Of a stretch of DNA of 14,074 nt, positions 1,948-12,613 are shown in pieces. The stretch lies in the IMG/VR virus record IMGVR_UViG_2778261358_000016, positions 1 to 14,074 of that record, one strand, 5' to 3'. The notes under the pieces are model-generated. The model was not told where the DNA came from and made no database searches. It saw nothing but the letters and a program-made list of their open reading frames with translations. Numbering within the stretch: the stretch's first letter is position 1; each line of letters starts with the position of its first letter. Source of the stretch: a virus (Duplodnaviria > Heunggongvirae > Uroviricota > Caudoviricetes). Made by a program: the position numbers and the translations under genes.

Positions 1948-2247
1948 ATGAAACTTAAATATTCTGGCTTAACTGCCAGTGGCAAAACTCGCACTAAATT
2001 CATGCGCGGTGATATTTACCGCGACCAGTACGGCGGCACGGTAATGATTAAGGGCGTGGAGGAACGGCGCGTAACCTACCGTCGTGAAGGCTACGAATAT
2101 GATTGCGTGATGCCTGTTTATCAGTTCGACCGTGATTTTTCTCTGGTGCAGGCTGTACCGCGTAACGTTCCAACCAGCAGGGAGAAAGCACGCGCCAATA
2201 TTCAGGAAATAAGAAAGATGTTGAATGTATTCAGGGGTAAAAAATGA
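1948..2247 (+). CDS. Hypothetical small protein F (99 aa), translationally coupled to the replication helicase
   Basis: Stop TGA overlaps rep ATG (ATGA at 2244..2247); GGAG upstream; no recognisable motif. Confidence 0.5.
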   Translation: MKLKYSGLTASGKTRTKFMRGDIYRDQYGGTVMIKGVEERRVTYRREGYEYDCVMPVYQFDRDFSLVQAVPRNVPTSREKARANIQEIRKMLNVFRGKK

Positions 2248-3650
2248 AACTGGCACCGAACGTAAAACTGTTACCGAAAGATAAACACACTGAGGCGGTT
2301 ATTTTTGCGGGTGATAATGCTCACTCCTTTGCAGAACATTACATGATTGCACAGGCCAAAAAAGCAGGCGATCCCATCCCTCCGGTTTACCTGGGCCGTT
2401 ATCAGTTAAGCGAACTGGACAATTTACAGATTGTTGATGAAGGACGATACAGAGCAAAGGTCATACGCGCCGGAAACCTGGACGATATGCAGATGCTGAC
2501 CATTGCCACCAAACTGGCGATCGCAGGTGTCCGGGAAGCGCGGTTACTTTCAGAGAATTTCGAACTACTGGAGGACTGGAGCGAGCAACTACCGCGACTT
2601 AAAGAAACCTGGGAACGCGGGGAAAGTCTGGTCATGAATGGCGTAAAGCGAAAAATCACACTTCCCATCTCATGGGGTTCTGAGGGATTCGACGCGCAGC
2701 AAAGCTACGTAATTAAGGGGCTTATTCCGGCTGAATCATTATGCAGCACCTACGGGGCCAGCGGTTCTTATAAATTGTTCCTGGCTATTTCCTGGTCGTG
2801 CCATGTTGCCACAGGTATGGCATGGGGAGGCCGCAGGGTAAGTAAGGGCGCGGTTATCTATATCGCTGGCGAAGGCAGTATGGGCGTAAAACGCCGCGTT
2901 AAGGCGTGGGAGATAACCCACGACAAGGTGGTTACGGATTTGTGCATCGTTAACGCGCCTGTCTTCCCTGCATCGCCTGACTATGTGGAGCAGGTTATCA
3001 GGACTGCCGGACTTGTTAAGAGCAGAACGGGCGAAAATGTGCGGCTGATTGTGATCGACACGCTGGCCCGTTGCTTTGGTGGGAATGATGAAAATGATTC
3101 CCGTGATATGGGCGCATTTATCCAGGGGTGTGACGCGATAAAGCAGGCCACAGGGGCCACGGTACTGGTGGTTCACCATTCCGGCAAGGATGAAACAAAG
3201 GGGGCGCGAGGTTCCAGCGCATTCCGCGCTGCACTGGATGCAGAGTACCGAATCAGCCGGGAAAATTCAGACGTTACAGCACTGGTGGCGGCGTGTACGA
3301 AGATGAAAGACGCAGAGGAGCCAAAAGAGAGCGCATACGACCTTAAAAGCGTGGAGGTGTTTACCGATACCGATGGCGAAGAGATTGTGTCCATGGTGGT
3401 GATTGACGTTCCCCGCGCCCCTGCTGAACTGGAGCGCATAGAGGAGGCCGGGAACAAGACGGAAAATCACACGGCTTTATGGGGTTGTATCCGGTCACGT
3501 ATACAGCATGGTGATAAATGCACGATCCCGCTGCTACGTGATGACATGAAAAAGCTGGGATATGACACAAAACACCTTAAACGATGGTTAGCCAAACTGG
3601 AAAAAGACGGCGTGATTTGCGTCGATGGGGATGATGTTCACCCACTGTAA
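2244..3650 (+). CDS. Replication protein, RepA-like RecA-fold helicase (AAA_25 family) with N-terminal and C-terminal extra domains
   Basis: Motifs resembling RSF1010 RepA-type helicases: GASGSYKLFLAISW (P-loop region, deviant), VIYIAGEGS, VIDTLARCF (Walker B-like), VLVVHHSGKDETKGARGSSAF (HH..K and RGSS motifs); iteron array immediately downstream. Confidence 0.7.
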   Translation: MKLAPNVKLLPKDKHTEAVIFAGDNAHSFAEHYMIAQAKKAGDPIPPVYLGRYQLSELDNLQIVDEGRYRAKVIRAGNLDDMQMLTIATKLAIAGVREARLLSENFELLEDWSEQLPRLKETWERGESLVMNGVKRKITLPISWGSEGFDAQQSYVIKGLIPAESLCSTYGASGSYKLFLAISWSCHVATGMAWGGRRVSKGAVIYIAGEGSMGVKRRVKAWEITHDKVVTDLCIVNAPVFPASPDYVEQVIRTAGLVKSRTGENVRLIVIDTLARCFGGNDENDSRDMGAFIQGCDAIKQATGATVLVVHHSGKDETKGARGSSAFRAALDAEYRISRENSDVTALVAACTKMKDAEEPKESAYDLKSVEVFTDTDGEEIVSMVVIDVPRAPAELERIEEAGNKTENHTALWGCIRSRIQHGDKCTIPLLRDDMKKLGYDTKHLKRWLAKLEKDGVICVDGDDVHPL

Positions 3651-5120: not shown

Positions 5121-6278
5121 ATGCCGAGAATAATCGAATTACGCCAGCAGAAAACCGCCATTAAAAATCAGATGCGCGACATGCTGGAGAACGCGGAAAA
5201 AGAAAACCGCAGTCTTAACGATGCTGAGGGCGCAAAATTTGACGAATTACGCGCTAAAGCTGAATCCCTCGATAAAGACATTTCCCGCCTTGAAGCCATT
5301 GCAGACGAAGAGCGCAGCAAGCCAGGTAAAAGCAGCCAGACCACTGACCCCGCAGAACTACGCAACTACATTCTGACAGGTGAAACCCGCGCATTAAGTA
5401 CAGGCGTTCCCGCTGATGGTGGTTATACCGTTATCCCCGAACTGAACACCGAAATCATGCGAATGCTGACGGATGAATCCACCATGCGCCGCATCTGTAC
5501 CGTGAAGAAAATCAGCAGCAACGAGTTTAAGCAGCTTGTTTCCGCTGGCGGTGCGACCGTTAACCACGGTGAAGAGGGTAAGACACGCGAACAGACCAGC
5601 ACCCCGCAGATTAACGAGGTGAGCATTAAGCTGTATCCGGTCTATGCGTACCCGCGCACCACATAGGAAATCGTGGATTTTTCCGATGTGGACATCCTTT
5701 CATGGCTGACGGGTGAGATTGGCGACACCTTCACGGAAACCGAAGAAAGCGATCTGGTTGTGGGCGACGGTGACAAAAAAGCAAAAGGTTTTTTATCCGT
5801 ACCCCGTGCAGAGAAGAACGACAAAGAGCGTGATTTTGGTACGTTGCAGGTAATTAAACCTTCCGAATCTCTGGCGTGGACATCTGCGGACCCGCTGATC
5901 GACCTGAAATTTGCATTACGTAAAAAATACCGCAAAAACGCGGTCTGGGTGGTTAACTCCACGACGGCGGCAAAACTTCAGAAGGTGAAGAACGCGAACG
6001 GTGATTACATCTGGCGCGACCGTTTACAGGCGGGTGATCCTGATACGTTGCTGGGCCTTCCGGTCGAATATCTGGAGTTTATGCCTGATAACGTTATTGC
6101 CCTGGGTGACTTCAAACGCGGTTACTACATTGTTGATCACGAAACAGGTGTTCGCACCAGACCGGACAACCTCACAGAGCCGGGCTTCATCAAAATTTTC
6201 ACGCAGAAATATTTAGGCGGTGGCGTGGTGGATTCGAACGCGATCAAGATTCTGGAACTGCCACAGGACGACGATTAA
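5121..6278 (+). pseudogene. HK97-family major capsid protein interrupted by a single in-frame amber codon (TAG 5664..5666); pseudogene or suppression-dependent
   Basis: ORFs 5073..5666 and 5673..6278 are in the same frame, separated only by TAG; conserved capsid region continues across the stop (YPRTT*EIVDFSDVDILSWL...GDGDKKAKGFL); N-terminal coiled-coil delta-like domain; AGGA RBS before ATG 5121. Confidence 0.7.
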
Positions 6279-6288
6279 CAGCATACAG

Positions 6289-6319
6289 AAGGGGCTTAAA
6301 AGCCCCTTTAGTGTTTTAT
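6289..6319 (+). terminator. Intrinsic terminator/attenuator directly after the major capsid gene
   Basis: AGGGGCTT-AAA-AGCCCCT hairpin followed by TTAGTGTTTT; overlaps the protease start region. Confidence 0.5.
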
Positions 6320-6890
6320 GGGTGAAAAAATTATGAAGAGTATGGAAATCCGGTCATCGGAAATCACTACCAGCGGAGCCGGTACGCTGACGGGCTACGT
6401 TGTTCGCTGGGATAAGCTTTCAGAACTGCTATGGGGGGAGTTTTACGAAAAATTCCAGCGGGGGGCGTTTACTGAGTGGCTTGCGGCGGGTAATGACGTT
6501 CGCGGCCTGTATGAGCATGACCACAGCATGTTACTGGGGCGCACCCGTTCCGGCACGCTGAAACTGGAAGAGGACGAAACAGGGTTACGCTTTGAACTGA
6601 CCCCACCGGATACCAGTACAGGGCGCGACGTTATCGAACTGGTTAAACGAGGTGATATATCCGGCATGAGCTTTGGCTTTCGTTCCCGTAAGGATGTATG
6701 GGATACCACAACAGATCCATGCGTGCGCACCGTGCTGGTGGCGGAACTATACGAAATTACCGTTACATCCGTACCGGCTTACCCTGATTCCGGCGTGGAG
6801 CTGGCCCGCCGCTCCCTGTACGAGCAGCACCCCGAAAAAATGCCGCGTGCGGATAATCGCCGCTGGTGGGCGGATTTAGCGGGGGTGTGA
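6318..6890 (+). CDS. Prohead maturation protease, HK97 family (start may be 6333 or 6342)
   Basis: Position next to capsid and portal; motifs LYEHDHSMLLGRT and GDISGMSFGF consistent with HK97-type prohead proteases. Confidence 0.75.
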   Translation: MGEKIMKSMEIRSSEITTSGAGTLTGYVVRWDKLSELLWGEFYEKFQRGAFTEWLAAGNDVRGLYEHDHSMLLGRTRSGTLKLEEDETGLRFELTPPDTSTGRDVIELVKRGDISGMSFGFRSRKDVWDTTTDPCVRTVLVAELYEITVTSVPAYPDSGVELARRSLYEQHPEKMPRADNRRWWADLAGV

Positions 6891-6891
6891 T

Positions 6892-8103
6892 ATGTGGCCT
6901 TTCAGAAGAAAAAAAGAGCAGCGCAGCATGACGCTTGATGAGTTTATGGCGCTGGCTGGCACATCGAACACGGGGGCGGGTGAGTACGTATCATCGGGGA
7001 CAGCGGAATCACTGCCCGCCGTCATGAACGCCGTCACGGTCATCTCTGAGGCGGTGGCTACCATGCCGTGTTACCTGTACCTGGTACGCAATGAGAAGGG
7101 GAAGGAGGCCCGAGAGTGGCTTGATTCTCATCCGGTCGATCACATCCTCAACGAGCGCCCGAACGCATGGCAAACCCCCTACCAGTTTAAGCGAATGATG
7201 ATTCGCCACTGCCTGTTAAACGGTAATGCTTATGCGGTGATTCAGTGGGGGCGTGATGGTTTTCCAGTCGCTTTGCATCCTTACCCGCCGCAGTCGGTGA
7301 ACGTTGAGCAGACAGGTGAGCATAACTGGCGCTACTGCATCACTGACGCCTACACCGGAAACACCCGCAACTATTTACCGTGGGAGGTTCTCCACCTTCG
7401 TTACTCCACGGATGACGGTTTTATGGGGCGCTCACCTGTAACCATCTGCCGCGAATCGCTGGGGCTTGGGCTGGCCCAACAACGCCACGGCGCGAGCGTG
7501 ATGCGTGATGGCATGATGGCGGCAGGGGTTATCACGTCAGGCGAATGGCTGGACGGCGTGAAGGGCAAACAGGCATTAGCCGCACTGGAACGCTACAAAG
7601 GGGCCAGAAACGCCGGAAAAACGCCCATCCTTGAAGGGGGTATGAGCTATCAGCAGCTGGGCATGAGTAATCAGGATGCTGAATGGCTGGCCTCCCGTCG
7701 CTTCACCATTGAAGACATCGCCCGAATGTTCAACGTCTCGCCGATTTTTTTGCAGGAATACAGCAACAGCACCTACAGCAATTTCAGCGAGGCAAGCCGC
7801 GCATTTCTCACCATGACGATGCGCCCGTGGCTGGCGAACTTTGAGCAGCAGATAAAAAACGCCCTGCTGGTGGCCTCACCTGTACCTGGTATCCGGTATC
7901 AGGTGGAGTTTGACAGCGCGGACCTGTTACGGGCCACTCCTGGCGAACGCTTTGCCACCTATGAACGCGGCATCAAATCCGGCGTTATGTGCCCGAACGA
8001 AGCCCGCGAACGTGAAGGGCTGTCCCCGCGTGATGGTGGTGATGAGTTCAGCCAGGCATGGAAACAGGAAGTAAAAATCAGCGAGGGAGAAAAACCGGAA
8101 TGA
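6892..8103 (+). CDS. Portal protein, HK97 family
   Basis: 403-aa protein with portal-like conserved blocks (NAYAVIQ, EDIARMFNVSPIFL); start overlaps protease stop. Confidence 0.8.
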   Translation: MWPFRRKKEQRSMTLDEFMALAGTSNTGAGEYVSSGTAESLPAVMNAVTVISEAVATMPCYLYLVRNEKGKEAREWLDSHPVDHILNERPNAWQTPYQFKRMMIRHCLLNGNAYAVIQWGRDGFPVALHPYPPQSVNVEQTGEHNWRYCITDAYTGNTRNYLPWEVLHLRYSTDDGFMGRSPVTICRESLGLGLAQQRHGASVMRDGMMAAGVITSGEWLDGVKGKQALAALERYKGARNAGKTPILEGGMSYQQLGMSNQDAEWLASRRFTIEDIARMFNVSPIFLQEYSNSTYSNFSEASRAFLTMTMRPWLANFEQQIKNALLVASPVPGIRYQVEFDSADLLRATPGERFATYERGIKSGVMCPNEAREREGLSPRDGGDEFSQAWKQEVKISEGEKPE

Positions 8104-8438: not shown

Positions 8439-8731
8439 CAGAAGAACTTATCACCCTGGAAGAAGTGAAACTCCATTGCCGCATCGATGGCGACGAGGAA
8501 GACCAGTTAATCAGCGGATACATCGCCGCATCGCTTGAGGCGTGCCAGATACACATAGGCAGGCGCTTTGATGACGGGCTGGAGTTCACGCCAGCCATAA
8601 AGATTGGCTGCATGATGTTTATCGCTCACCTGTATGAAAATCGCCAGATTGTCGCGGATAACGCAAAAACACGCGTACCCATGACGATTGGTGCACTCTG
8701 GACGGCTTACCGTGATGTGGGGGTGTACTGA
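8435..8731 (+). CDS. gp6-like head-tail connector protein
   Basis: N-terminal ITLEEVKLHCRIDGDEEDQLISGYIAAS matches the characteristic LxxAKxHLRID..D.LI motif of gp6-like connectors. Confidence 0.65.
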   Translation: MTEELITLEEVKLHCRIDGDEEDQLISGYIAASLEACQIHIGRRFDDGLEFTPAIKIGCMMFIAHLYENRQIVADNAKTRVPMTIGALWTAYRDVGVY

Positions 8732-9171
8732 TGCCGTGGCAACCATTAAGACGATGCACAGAACCAGGCTGTAACAGGCGCGTGAAGTCCGGCAAGTGTG
8801 AGGAGCACAGGCGGGCGGCATGGCGTGCAGAGGATGCCAGACGAGGACACCGCCGCGCGCGTGGGTACTCCAGACAGTGGGACAAATACCGCGCCATGTA
8901 TCTGAGTAAAAACCCGTTATGCGTGCGATGCCTTGAGAAGGGGATATATACGCCCGCCGTGGTGGTGGATCACATTATCCCGATTAATGGCGGTGATGAT
9001 GTTCTCTTCTGGCCCGAATGGAACCATCAGCCATTGTGCCAGGCGTGCCATAACCAGAAAACGAAATGGCTTGATCCGGCAACAAAAAGCAAGCGTGCCG
9101 CAGGTGGATTTCGTGAAGAGGAAGAACGGGCCGCTAACCGCAATAACTGGATGTATGACGCTGATGAATGA
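8731..9171 (+). CDS. HNH endonuclease associated with the terminase (HK97 gp74-like role)
   Basis: Cys-rich zinc-binding N-terminus and HNH motif VVVDHIIPINGGDD...NHQPLCQACHNQKT; sits immediately upstream of terS/terL. Confidence 0.8.
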   Translation: MPWQPLRRCTEPGCNRRVKSGKCEEHRRAAWRAEDARRGHRRARGYSRQWDKYRAMYLSKNPLCVRCLEKGIYTPAVVVDHIIPINGGDDVLFWPEWNHQPLCQACHNQKTKWLDPATKSKRAAGGFREEEERAANRNNWMYDADE

Positions 9172-9337
9172 GCGGGAACAAAACCGCCTTATCCGTGGAC
9201 TTATAAGGCAGCGTGACGCATGGAAGACACAGGAAACAGGGCATAAAGATAAAGCGTCAGGACGCGCAGAACGCATCACAGCGAAGCGATTAACCGACCG
9301 TGACTGCGAGGTTATGGAATGTTTCCGCAATCGCTGA
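9164..9337 (+). CDS. Hypothetical small basic protein (57 aa)
   Basis: ATG overlaps HNH stop (ATGAATGA); no clear RBS; Arg/Lys-rich; could be non-coding. Confidence 0.3.
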   Translation: MNEREQNRLIRGLIRQRDAWKTQETGHKDKASGRAERITAKRLTDRDCEVMECFRNR

Positions 9338-9460
9338 TGAGGCTGTATGACGGGGTGGGGGGCGTTTTCAGGACAAACCCGACCCCGCCGGGCACCGAAC
9401 GCCTCCTCAAATTTTTATGCACGGGAATTTTTTGAAAAATAATCTGGCGAAAAAATAAGC
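9338..9460 (+). other. Putative cos region between HNH and terS
   Basis: G-rich imperfect dyad GGGGTGGGG-N17-CCCGACCCC at about 9352..9386; position matches the HNH-cos-terS-terL arrangement known from HK97-like cos phages. Confidence 0.3.
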
Positions 9461-9817
9461 ATGGCAAGACCACCGAAAGCCCCCGCCTACCTGGATGATA
9501 TCGCCGTGAAGCAGTGGCGGGAAAAATCGCGGCAGCTTGCGGAACGGGGAGACCTTACCCCCGCCGACTGGAGTAATCTGGAACTGTATTGTGTCAACTA
9601 CTCCATTTACCGGAAAGCCGTTGCAGACCTTGCGGCGCGCGGGTTCAGCATTGTTAACAGTCAGGGCGGCGAGAGCAGAAACCCCGCATTAAGCGCAAAA
9701 TCCGACGCTGAAAGAGTGATGATAAAAATGGCCTCCTTGCTCGGTTTTGACCCGATAAGCCGCCGTAAAAATCCACCGGAAACAGAAGAAGAGGACGAGC
9801 TTGACCGCCTGGAATAA
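9461..9817 (+). CDS. Terminase small subunit (P27-family-like)
   Basis: About 118 aa starting MARPPKAP, acidic C-terminus, immediately upstream of and overlapping terL. Confidence 0.65.
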   Translation: MARPPKAPAYLDDIAVKQWREKSRQLAERGDLTPADWSNLELYCVNYSIYRKAVADLAARGFSIVNSQGGESRNPALSAKSDAERVMIKMASLLGFDPISRRKNPPETEEEDELDRLE

Positions 9818-11462
9818 GTACGCAGAAGACGTAAAAACGGGCAAAATTCCGGCCTGTAAACGGCTGAAACAGGCCGTTAAACGGTACTTTTCGGACCTTG
9901 AAAGCCCCCTTTACACGTTCGATCGTGAGGTTGTGGAGCGGTTTATTGCCTTTTCCAGGGTGTGCCCGCACGTAAAAGGCGCAATGCGCGGTAGCCCCAT
10001 TGAGCTGGAGCCGTGGCAGCAGTTCGCCTTTGCGTGCATCCTCGGCTTTAAGGTTAAGGCCACCGGACGGCGCAAATACACGAGCGCCTTTATCGAAGTG
10101 CCGCGCAAAAATGCGAAATCCACGACCGCCGCGATTCTGGCTAACTGGTTTTTGATTATGGAGAACGGTCAGCAGGATATCTACACCGCAGCGGTGAGCC
10201 GTGACCAGGCGCGGATCGTCTTTGATGATGCGCGTCAGATGTGCCTTTTATCCCGACCGTTACGCAGGCGGGTGAATATTCAGGCGCATAAGGTGATACA
10301 CCCGAAAAGCAACAGCCTGTTAAAGCCGCTGGCAGCAAAAGCGGCAACCATTGAAGGTACAAACCCGAGTCTTGCCATTGTGGATGAATATCACCTGCAC
10401 CCTGACAACGGGGTTTATTCCGCGCTTGAACTGGGAATGGGGGCGCGTCCGGAGGGGCTGTTATTTGCCATCACCACATCGGGGAGCAACGTTGTTTCAG
10501 CCTGTAAACAACACTACGACTATTGCTGCCAGATACTGGATGGTGAAGAGGTGAACGAATCCATGTTCGTGCTGATTTACGAGCTGGATGATGAAAGCGA
10601 GGTTGACGATCCGGCGATGTGGATAAAGGCGAATCCCAATATCGATGTTTCCGTCGATCGTGAAAAACTGGCCTCAACCATCCAGAAAGCGCGGGGAATA
10701 CCGTCGCAGTGGGTGGAGATGATGACAAAGCGATTTAATATCTGGTGCCAGGGGGCTACCCCGTGGATGGGTAACGGCGCATGGGCTGAGTGTGCCGGAA
10801 CGTTCACGGAGGAAGATTTACACGGCCAGGAGTGTTACGCGGGGCTGGATTTATCATCAACCAGCGATATTTCCAGCGTATGCTATGCCTTTCCGGTCGG
10901 TAAAACCATTATGCTGATTTCCCGTCATTATCTGCCGGAGTTCCAGCTACAGAACCCCGCCAATAAAAACCGCGCTGTCTATCGTCAGTGGGCTAAAGCG
11001 GGCTGGATACGCACAACGCCTGGCGACTGCATTGATTACGACCGGATCAGAGATGACATCATGCAGGACGCGGAGAAATTTCATATCAGGCTGGTGGGCT
11101 TTGATACGTGGAACGCCACGCATCTCAGAACGCAATTACAGGGGGCAGGTTTTGAGGTGGAGCCGTTCCCGCAAACCTACCTCAGATTCAGTCCGGCGGC
11201 GAAATCGTTCGAAGTTTTTGTTAACCGCAGGGTGATTGTGCATCGTGGCGATCCGGTGTTGTCCTGGTCGATGAGTAACGTCGTGATGCAGAGTGACGCG
11301 AACGCCAATATCAAGCCGAACAAGAAAAAATCACCGAACAAGATAGACCCGAGCGTGGCGGCACTGATGGCGTTTGGTACATTCCAGGCAGAGCATGAGG
11401 ATTTTGCTTTTGATATAAGCGACAGCCACCGCCAGAAACTGGAAGAATTCAGCGGGGTGTAA
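9801..11462 (+). CDS. Terminase large subunit (TTG start)
   Basis: 553 aa; ATPase Walker A-like VPRKNAKST and Walker B LAIVDEYHL; nuclease-domain motif GLDLSSTSD; GAGGA RBS 5 nt before TTG at 9801, which overlaps the terS 3-prime end by 17 nt. Confidence 0.85.
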   Translation: MTAWNKYAEDVKTGKIPACKRLKQAVKRYFSDLESPLYTFDREVVERFIAFSRVCPHVKGAMRGSPIELEPWQQFAFACILGFKVKATGRRKYTSAFIEVPRKNAKSTTAAILANWFLIMENGQQDIYTAAVSRDQARIVFDDARQMCLLSRPLRRRVNIQAHKVIHPKSNSLLKPLAAKAATIEGTNPSLAIVDEYHLHPDNGVYSALELGMGARPEGLLFAITTSGSNVVSACKQHYDYCCQILDGEEVNESMFVLIYELDDESEVDDPAMWIKANPNIDVSVDREKLASTIQKARGIPSQWVEMMTKRFNIWCQGATPWMGNGAWAECAGTFTEEDLHGQECYAGLDLSSTSDISSVCYAFPVGKTIMLISRHYLPEFQLQNPANKNRAVYRQWAKAGWIRTTPGDCIDYDRIRDDIMQDAEKFHIRLVGFDTWNATHLRTQLQGAGFEVEPFPQTYLRFSPAAKSFEVFVNRRVIVHRGDPVLSWSMSNVVMQSDANANIKPNKKKSPNKIDPSVAALMAFGTFQAEHEDFAFDISDSHRQKLEEFSGV

Positions 11463-11475
11463 TGAGGTCAGCAGC

Positions 11476-11757
11476 ATGACAGAAGCCGAACTACTGGGAT
11501 TAATCCGCCGCGTATCTGGAATCAGCCAGCAGGCTGACGAACAGACCACGCAGCCGGACAGCGTGACAGCCGAAAATTATGCGCGTGTTGTTGCTGAGGT
11601 GATGTGCCGTGATGGTATCCAGCTTAATGATGTTGATATGCGCAACATACGGATCCGCGTTCTTGAAATGCTGGCCTACAATCGCCGCGTTGAACTGCAT
11701 CGGGAGAAAGAAAAAATAACGTACCACTGGAAGAAGCCGGAGCGGTTGCGGCGGTAA
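11476..11757 (+). CDS. Hypothetical protein (93 aa) downstream of terL
   Basis: ORF following terL; its stop codon lies inside the first copy of the downstream repeat box. Confidence 0.45.
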   Translation: MTEAELLGLIRRVSGISQQADEQTTQPDSVTAENYARVVAEVMCRDGIQLNDVDMRNIRIRVLEMLAYNRRVELHREKEKITYHWKKPERLRR

Positions 11758-12173
11758 CTGGTTGATATTTTCGAAATTCGCCAGCGGCGAACATCGGGGA
11801 AACCAGCCTAACCCGTTGATTCTTTCGGAAACAGCCATTGGCGGAATCCGGCGCGGTAACTTGCTGATATTCCCGATAACGCAAAATTGCGTGGCTGAAT
11901 GAACATTATGATTACTTATGATTACGCAGATGATTAAGGCCTAAACCGTTGATTCTTCCCAATTTCCACAGACTGTGGAAGTTGGCGCGGTAACTTACTG
12001 AGATTAAAGCAAAGCGCAAAATTGCGCCGACTACATCCCTCACATGCGAAATTTTCGCAGTTTAATTACTCGCCAGTTTGATCGTTAACCCGCTGATATT
12101 TTCGGGAACCTCAATTTGAGGAAGTCGGCGCGGTAACTGGTTGATACTTTCGACCTCCTCAATTTGAGGAGGT
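11748..12173 (+). repeat. Array of diverged about 133-bp tandem units, each with a Y box (TAAMCCGYTGATWYTTYC) and an X box (GGCGCGGTAACTNNNTGANAT) followed by palindromes of unit-specific sequence
   Basis: X boxes at 11748, 11848, 11982, 12125; Y boxes at 11809, 11942, 12084; palindromes TTCGCC-N3-GGCGAA, CGCAAAATTGCG (twice), TTCCACAGACTGTGGAA, CCTCAATTTGAGG (twice, once extended to 11-bp arms). Confidence 0.7.
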
Positions 12174-12613
12174 CGGGGCACAGAAAAACAACGAATATGT
12201 TGTTTTTGGGAATGGTCATAATGACCACGCAGACCATCAAGGCAACCACAACGAACATCGTTACGGTTGGAGCTTTTACCCCACTGGGGGAAAGGTATTA
12301 CGATAATCATAACACCTACCGAACAGGTAAAACCCACCAGCCTGATTAACAGTTAACCGGAAAAAAAATCCGGTAGCCCCGTTATGGGGATCCCCATATC
12401 GACATTAACGCCCCTCATGAATTGGTGCGCTTCCCCCTGGAAAGATTACCCGCCTGTATATTTCTTGTGTCTATTTGTTCCACGTTGTTTCATACAGTGC
12501 ACCGAACGGTGTAGTTAATGGTGTAGTCAATTTGCTGTTTTTAGCACTTTTTGCAGTGTGGGTTGTTTAATTAAATCAATTGGTTGCCTTGCTGTGGTGA
12601 TAAAAGGACATAT

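Follow-up and report, generated by a model that had tools for sequence, protein, structure and literature searches.

Where on its genome does a satellite that builds its own capsids carry the site at which its DNA is cut for packaging, and which parts of that site matter? The window (the whole 14,074-nucleotide stretch analyzed here) raises this question because an initial annotation placed a putative cos site in the noncoding gap in front of terS, drew attention to an imperfect G-rich dyad within it, and proposed that a cos of the satellite's own would make packaging independent of the helper terminase. Our analysis leads to a more specific answer: with a probability of roughly 80%, the cos site of this cf-PICI lies in the gap at 9338-9460 and is read by the island's own TerS, TerL, and HNH proteins, and the dyad is not its hallmark.

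The element and its packaging genes

cf-PICIs are recently described, widespread satellites that make their own capsids and borrow tails alone. The window is a cf-PICI, similar to the prototype EcCIEDL933, that adjoins phoQ in E. coli. Pfam matches and RefSeq annotation identify capsid, protease, portal, connector, HNH, terS, and terL genes, and tail and lysis genes are absent. Beyond 5 kb, the open reading frames encode, by Pfam, a major capsid protein, an HK97-type prohead protease, a portal, a head-closure protein, a head-tail connector, HNH, TerS, and TerL, i.e., the order capsid, protease, portal, connectors, HNH, TerS, TerL that was published for proteobacterial cf-PICIs. With an identity of 99.8%, the window matches a chromosomal island in E. 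coli E110019, which is flanked by an integrase beside roxA and by phoQ and whose size, ~14-15 kb, falls in the cf-PICI range of 10-18 kb; between roxA and phoQ, this locus encodes an integrase and, as expected for regulation and replication of the PICI type, an HTH regulator and a RepA-family helicase, again without tail or lysis genes. Among 5426 complete E. coli genomes, 533 carry close relatives of the HNH-terS stretch, chromosomal in every case.

Two further observations concern the island as a whole. RefSeq lists two pseudogenes in the E110019 copy, the RepA-family helicase (5559-6965, internal stop) and the prohead protease (9620-10191, frameshift), whereas their counterparts in the window (2244-3650 and 6318-6890, respectively) are open. 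Furthermore, between the last island open reading frame (11476-11757, phrog_1561) and phoQ, the window carries ~5-8 imperfect direct repeats (11748-12178) with the core GGCGCGGTAACTkGyTGATATT / TAACCCGTTGATTCTT and spacings of 48-134 nt, for which iterons, an accessory site, or att-proximal repeats are candidate roles.

Published work has established how such elements travel: EcCIEDL933 and KpCIDSM30104 are helper-induced and are transferred in their own small capsids with helper tails. In EcCIEDL933, transfer is lost or severely reduced when any of the packaging genes is mutated, an effect not seen with helper terminase mutants; cf-PICI packaging is independent of the helper terminase, and the packaging of EcCIEDL933 and HK106 is mutually exclusive. 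The proposal of helper-independent packaging was thus already in print for cf-PICIs.

The features around the gap are collected in Table 1. The HNH protein is probably a cofactor of cos cleavage, judging from its similarity to HK97 gp74. The gap itself has the proposed length of 123 bp, is noncoding, and abuts terS, but it does not directly follow HNH, as had been assumed: HNH ends at 9171, and a 60-aa open reading frame intervenes. This small frame overlaps the 3' end of HNH, and the sequence coding for its C terminus is conserved across Enterobacterales. It may correspond to "hypothetical gene 1792" of EcCIEDL933, mutation of which severely reduced transfer. HK75, Psymv2, and AbIPP1 also have a small open reading frame at the equivalent position, with no similarity detected between the window's protein and that of HK75.

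Table 1. Packaging-region features of the window (coordinates are window positions).
Feature	Position	Strand	Sequence	Basis
HNH endonuclease gene	8731..9171	+		Pfam HNH, E 1.8e-08; 39% identity to HK97 gp74, E 2e-19
Conserved 60-aa ORF between HNH and cos	9155..9337	+		RefSeq hypothetical protein; phrog_3173, E 3.7e-36
Noncoding gap holding the putative cos site	9338..9460	+		123 bp, ends at terS ATG (9461)
G-run (left arm of the dyad)	9352..9362	+	GGGGTGGGGGG	G9358-9361 invariant in 35 elements
GACAA element	9366..9376	+	TTTCAGGACAA	A9376 invariant, neighbouring columns at least 90% conserved
Variable spacer with right arm of the dyad (9378-9387)	9377..9390	+		Identity 0.52; pairing not kept across relatives
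Predicted cleavage core (cosN-like)	9394..9420	+	ACCGAACGCCTC, then CTCAAATTTTTATGC	HK97 alignment; invariant ACC 9394-9396, T9407, A9411, TTTT 9412-9415
Predicted TerS-binding site (cosB-like)	9419..9442	+	GCACGGGAATTTTTTGAAAAATAA	TTTTT 9428-9432 invariant; HK97 TerS site +15..+29 has T-tract
Predicted specificity subsite after the T-run	9434..9442	+		Two versions co-varying with TerS
terS, P27-family small terminase	9461..9817	+		Pfam Terminase_4, E 1.3e-23
terL, large terminase (ATPase, nuclease)	9801..11462	+		Pfam TerL_ATPase, TerL_nuclease; 27% identity to HK97 gp2, E 4e-47

A conserved noncoding block and its likeness to HK97 cos

Sequences 5' of terS were gathered from one genome per species, from IMG/VR, and from phage records, and 35 cf-PICI elements were aligned, which represent ~25 genera in four orders of Gammaproteobacteria (including Escherichia, Klebsiella, Citrobacter, Serratia, Erwinia, Pantoea, Pectobacterium, Xenorhabdus, Photorhabdus, Proteus, Aeromonas, Pasteurella, Avibacterium, Gilliamella, and Frischella). 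Across all 35, a block of ~95 nt (9352-9442) aligned with isolated one-base gaps only and contained 21 invariant columns. Its pieces are, in order, a G-run (9352-9362), GACAA (~9372-9376), ACC-N9-CCTCAAATTTTTAYGCACGG (ACC at 9394-9396, CCTCAAATTTTTAYGCACGG at 9405-9424), and a T-run (9428-9433) followed by GAAAATAA. Mean pairwise identity reached 0.80 in the right part of the block and 0.67 in the left part, as compared to 0.51 at terS third codon positions; the spacer of about 20 nt that contains the right arm of the dyad had an identity of 0.52, indistinguishable from this neutral level. The comparison supports purifying selection on the noncoding block. The anatomy of the site is very likely, in order, a G-run/GACAA block, an unconstrained spacer, a C-rich nicking core, and an A/T-tract TerS site with a lineage-specific distal subsite.

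That the conserved block is noncoding follows from the sequences in front of terS: 18 of the 32 relatives with a recognised terS start have in-frame stops no more than 10 codons 5' of it, and the distances from block to ATG fall in all three reading frames. These stops and frame-shifting length differences rule out that the block encodes an N-terminal extension of TerS, as gene calls of 156-165 aa would have it; since the block is noncoding, such public TerS calls appear to be over-extensions.

The core motif occurs once per cf-PICI, each time ~55 nt 5' of terS; the window contains this single occurrence, with 0 expected by chance. A blastn search of the region against 50,697 phage records returned matches to cf-PICI-derived records only, which agrees with the published independent and mutually exclusive packaging. 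Xenorhabdus genomes are rich in this terS type (X. kozodoii and X. innexi, for instance, each have no fewer than six loci), and several draft contigs break at or beside the block, presumably because it is repeated.

The closest known counterpart of this arrangement is the cos site of HK97, where, according to the literature, HNH stimulates cleavage, a 10-nt 3' overhang is produced, and the minimal TerS site, at +15..+29, contains a T-tract. The HK97 record closes with ...GGGCAGGGGGGGGGATCAAATCTTCAAAACCTTTGCCCCAAATGACCGCCGCCAAA and opens with GTTTGAATTTAACGCTAACCCGATTTTTTTAG, and the final 10 nt of the HK75 record are annotated as cos. The layout HNH, small ORF, cos, terS is common to the element, HK97, HK75, Psymv2, and AbIPP1, and in HK97, HK022, HK75, and HK106 the order HNH, small ORF, cos, terS, terL is the same as here. 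At the protein level, HNH and TerL are 39% and 27% identical, respectively, to their HK97 counterparts. Both DNA sites have an upstream G-run, whose end lies 65 nt from the start of the T-run in either case, a core of the form ACCGCC...ATTTxACGC, and a downstream A/T tract at the place where HK97 TerS binds. Base differences between the two fall at the predicted nick and within the GC portion of the TerS site, which is consistent with the mutually exclusive packaging of EcCIEDL933 and HK106. They also differ in TerS, which is a P27/Terminase_4 protein of 118 aa in the element and a 161-aa protein (gp1) in HK97.

Direct similarity of the window to HK97 cos is not significant (815 of 1000 shuffles scored as high), and the same holds for the window and the Psymv2 intergenic region (245 of 2000 shuffles); hence, the link to HK97 rests on the family consensus and on intermediates. 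For EDL933 against HK97 cos, the observed score was reached in 8 of 1000 shuffles; for the cf-PICI consensus and EDL933 against Psymv2, it was reached in 9 of 2000. Between the HK97 cos region and Psymv2, the score was 44, as compared to 17.9 ± 3.0 for shuffles, and was reached in none of 2000. The core of AbIPP1 is the same as that of Psymv2 and HK97, and, by sequence, the intergenic regions of Psymv2 and AbIPP1 are clearly homologous to HK97 cos. Psymv2 (Psychrobacter) and AbIPP1 (Acinetobacter) share with the element a homologous P27-family TerS (~38% identity), an HNH gene, a small ORF, and a G-run followed after ~28 nt by ACCGCCnCC..AAAG..ATTTTTACG. They differ from it in being complete phages with tails and in what follows ACG, which is AGCGTTTAATTAAAAG rather than the cf-PICI sequence GCACGG-N3-T7-GAAAATAA. 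A G-run equivalent is found 28-32 nt 5' of ACCGCC in HK97, HK75, Psymv2, and AbIPP1, and, by analogy with cosQ, the G-run may be a termination or nuclease-positioning element.

This comparison allowed us to predict where the DNA is nicked. Over 27 nt, the core can be aligned gaplessly to HK97 ACCGCCGCCAAA-GTTTGAATTTAACGC, and the span from ACCGCC to ACG, as read from the sequences, is 26 nt in HK97, AbIPP1, and the cf-PICIs alike; the HK97 nick (between ACCGCCGCCAAA and G) would therefore fall between 9405 and 9406 in the window (between ACCGAACGCCTC and C). We accordingly predict a top-strand nick at ~9405/9406 (range to 9411/9412) and a probable 10-nt 3' overhang at 9396-9405, CGAACGCCTC. 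Other routes gave nearby values: 9411/9412 when AAA was used as the anchor, 9404/9405 from the equal 65-nt spacing of G-run and T-run, and 9410/9411 from an unverified Pseudomonas phage contig whose start lies within the homologous core. Together with the midpoint of an assembly gap described below, these estimates, all of them inferred, agree within 8 nt. The nick position may vary by lineage, as the unverified Pseudomonas contig starts 5 nt from the HK97-equivalent nick.

Wider comparisons place the site among known packaging systems. Like lambda cos (cosQ, cosN, cosB), it would be tripartite, with a late upstream element, a nicking core, and a TerS-binding region between nick and terS; unlike it, lambda has 12-nt 5' overhangs, no HNH, and IHF plus three R sites, and the two have no sequence relationship. 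P4, SaPIbov5 (phi12/phiSLT), and EcCICFT073 (Rpp) are likewise phage satellites packaged from cos, but they need the helper TerL (and its TerS or a modified TerS), whereas the present element is predicted to use its own HNH, TerS, and TerL. An HK97-like cos beside terS is what a specialist would expect, and the architecture is one expected in a known satellite family; what is modestly new is the depth of its conservation and the pairing of TerS cassette and subsite.

TerS and the distal subsite

The short sequence after the T-run is of two kinds: 54 elements carry the version GAAAATAA, and 14 carry xxAGCAG (n = 68). The version co-varies perfectly with TerS residues 64-70 and 78. More broadly, two cassettes at TerS residues 61-80 (window 9641-9700), IVNSQGGESRNPALSAK and VEGSRGATTSNPALKAK, segregate perfectly with the two subsite versions in the same 68 elements, and both versions occur within Xenorhabdus and within Erwinia. 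Outside the cassette, version-B TerS proteins (residues 1-60 and 81-117) are equally similar to A and B (0.81/0.78 and 0.88/0.84 in Pectobacterium); within it, their identity to A is 0.43-0.68 (no higher than 0.53 in six of seven elements), and their identity to B is 0.73-0.88. Simple linkage explains this poorly, since the sequence coding for the N terminus, which does not follow the pattern, sits between the DNA subsite and the cassette. A matched specificity of TerS and subsite would be the better explanation, and the co-variation could partly reflect shared ancestry.

An AlphaFold model of TerS (mean pLDDT 73) has two long helices, with residues 64-72 folded between them as a beta-hairpin. 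The four best PDB matches of this model were HK97 TerS chains (8POP/6Z6E), all of them weak (E 0.23-0.81, TM ~0.5); at the sequence level, BLASTP found no similarity between TerS and HK97 gp1, and a sequence search of the PDB gave no match.

These data suggest a broader scheme, which we put forward tentatively, as a possibility about which we remain somewhat doubtful: cf-PICIs may comprise at least two packaging types, in which a swappable 20-residue beta-hairpin cassette of TerS (IVNSQGGESRNPALSAK or VEGSRGATTSNPALKAK) is matched to a 9-bp subsite (GAAAATAA or xxAGCAG), and the rest of cos (G-run, 28-32 nt, ACCGCC..ATTTxACGC) would be an ancient module common to HK97 and to phages with a P27-type TerS. 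If so, one could read from the pairing which satellite DNA is packaged by a given TerS, and the DNA-reading surface would differ from the N-/C-terminal clamp described for HK97 TerS. Binding and transfer would then follow matched pairs only (GAAAAATAA versus CAATAGCAG, and the cassette versus the VEGSRGATTS type).

Ends of packaged DNA and competing readings

A second line of evidence comes from DNA assembled from virions. The 16.5-kb record LR881103 (vB_KppS-Ant) carries terS, terL, integrase, primase, capsid, portal, connector, and HNH genes and, by this gene content, is a cf-PICI; its source, K. pneumoniae DSM 30104, is the strain after which KpCIDSM30104, the element studied by He et al., is named. 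The authors of the record described it as >99% identical to a region of the DSM 30104 genome and obtained the sequence from a DNase-treated lysate, using Nextera XT for the library and SPAdes for assembly. The first base of the record lies 22 nt 5' of the terS ATG, and the record closes with ...TTTTCAGGAC / ...GGGGTGGGGGAGGTTTTCAGGAC, its right end being the equivalent of window 9374. Relative to the copy integrated in ATCC 13883, 69 bp are missing from it (GAACACGAGGGCGCCAGGCACCACCCGCCCCCTCAAATTTTTTCGCACGGTGATTTTTTTGAAAATAAA), centred on CCCCCTCAAATTTTTT, with the midpoint of the gap in CTCAAA, i.e., at window ~9408/9409. A second, different Klebsiella cf-PICI with the same permutation forms the 3' end of PQ569648; it extends from the terS ATG into the small ORF, such that 133 bp around the core are missing. 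Hundreds of isolate genome assemblies, by contrast, continue unbroken through the region.

In tagmentation libraries, the outermost tens of bases of a linear molecule are poorly represented. On the simplest interpretation, cf-PICI DNA would be packaged as a unique linear molecule with its ends in the equivalent of 9375-9442; this argument assumes that terminal DNA is lost in tagmentation, places the ends only within ~70 bp, and draws on two Klebsiella relatives. He et al. reported that packaged cf-PICI DNA has cohesive cos ends, with cohesive-end concatemers seen. In the literature that we searched, the cos site of cf-PICIs was assumed, its location not being given, and no mapped ends were found for any E. 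coli cf-PICI. A search of IMG/VR with terS relatives and the conserved motif yielded no usable contigs that start or end at the site; among the matches listed, nearly all were of prophage type with the site internal.

Some features of these records call for comment on their own. PQ569648.1 is deposited as a 106.5-kb "complete genome" of Klebsiella phage P12620-1, with a whole cf-PICI at 90.6-106.5 kb, its 3' end. Apparently, a phage and a co-packaged satellite were assembled into one chimeric record, joined at the terS start codon, and we rejected the junction between the two as a cos end, as it coincides with the terS ATG and results from assembly. The ends of the AbIPP1 record were likewise dropped as evidence, that record having been rotated to begin at the terS ATG. 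"Escherichia phage vB_KppS-Ant" is called a filamentous ssDNA prophage in its paper, and its 2.3-kb ORF after terL is annotated as a tape measure protein.

In the mechanism that we propose, TerS would bind the A/T-tract site (9419-9442) after excision and replication, with its beta-hairpin (residues 61-80) reading the distal subsite (9434-9442). TerL and HNH would then nick the C-rich core in a staggered manner, at ~9405/9406 on the top strand and ~10 nt upstream on the bottom strand, yielding a 10-nt 3' overhang as in HK97. Packaging would run rightwards through terS, terL, the att junction, and int and on to HNH, and it would halt at the next cos, making the G-run/GACAA block (9352-9376) the last DNA to enter the capsid, where it likely aids termination or nuclease positioning. 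A defined site of ~95 bp would enable cosmid-type vectors for cf-PICI particles, permit clean tests of packaging exclusivity between satellite and helper, and help annotation, as many public TerS calls run through the block.

The placement of cos 5' of terS draws on four independent lines, namely the conservation of the block, the breaks in virion assemblies, the HK97-type synteny and core alignment, and the co-variation with the TerS cassette, and in this respect the initial annotation is supported. Two other readings would detach cos from the block. One holds that the block is a control element of terS-terL (a promoter, operator, antiterminator, or leader RNA) and that cos lies elsewhere. 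The block does sit just 5' of terS, and some records of HK97-like phages annotate a "promoter" in the equivalent gap; however, a + strand scan found no sigma-70-like promoter or intrinsic terminator, and an Rfam search gave no match. The consensus fold reached only -3.4 kcal/mol through a five-pair interaction of G-run and C-run and showed no covariation, such that folding, consensus fold, Rfam, and terminator scan together revealed no stable conserved hairpin, terminator, or known RNA family in the block. Moreover, the 25-50 nt beside the ATG, where a leader or ribosome-binding site would act, are the variable part, and a control element leaves both the virion-assembly breaks and the co-variation of subsite and TerS cassette unexplained; we consider it highly unlikely. 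Equally slim, in our judgment, are the chances that the packaging site lies in the repeat array (11748-12173) or 5' of the capsid gene, or that packaging is of the headful (pac) type. The array is a real family of ~5-8 repeats, and TerS proteins of pac systems can bind repeated sites, but it lies outside the alignment of the window with KpCIDSM30104, which comprises terS-terL, capsid-to-portal, and connector/HNH only. KpCIDSM30104 (vB_KppS-Ant) has other genes after terL, yet it has kept the block and ends there. The single core motif at a constant place before terS, the cohesive ends reported for cf-PICI DNA, and the one fixed permutation (terS to small ORF) shared by the virion-derived contigs also speak against these alternatives and for a cos site in the gap.

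The remaining alternative keeps cos in the gap but assigns the function to the dyad itself, as a hairpin or cruciform recognised by HNH or the terminase nuclease. The dyad exists as first described: a repeat search finds arms of 10 nt at 9351-9360 and 9378-9387 with 90% complementarity (9 of 10) and a spacing of 17 nt, reading GGGGTGGGG (9352-9360), 17 nt, and CCCGACCCC (9378-9386). Its left arm is the invariant G-run, and many relatives have some C-run 3' of the G-run. Yet it is at chance level: 291 of 2000 dinucleotide-preserving shuffles of the 123-bp gap yielded an inverted repeat of equal or better quality, and the whole window contains 54 inverted repeats of this grade (0.47 per 123 nt). 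The single-strand folding energy of the gap is ordinary as well (-18.8 kcal/mol versus -16.2 ± 2.7 for shuffles, z = -0.97). Conservation is lowest in the segment with the right arm, the spacer that evolves at a neutral rate, and the C-rich arm was not found in the EcCIEDL933, Pasteurella/Pmp7, Pectobacterium, Rosenbergiella, and Gilliamella elements. Across the 35 elements, pairing in the register of the dyad amounted to 59.3% of cells, as compared to 56.2% for column shuffles and 65.0% when the register was slid by two columns (+2). A functional dyad is, on these data, improbable; the dyad is a by-product of a conserved G-run facing a C-rich, unconstrained spacer and is incidental to cos.

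A different complementarity is present in the same region, which might reflect a single protein that recognises one motif in both orientations. The invariant G-run at 9357-9361 is complementary to the C-rich stretch at 9403-9407 that spans the predicted nick (GGGGG / CTCCT, 41 nt apart), which is the only pairing retained in the family consensus fold, and HK97, Psymv2, and AbIPP1 likewise have an upstream G-run and a C-rich overhang region.
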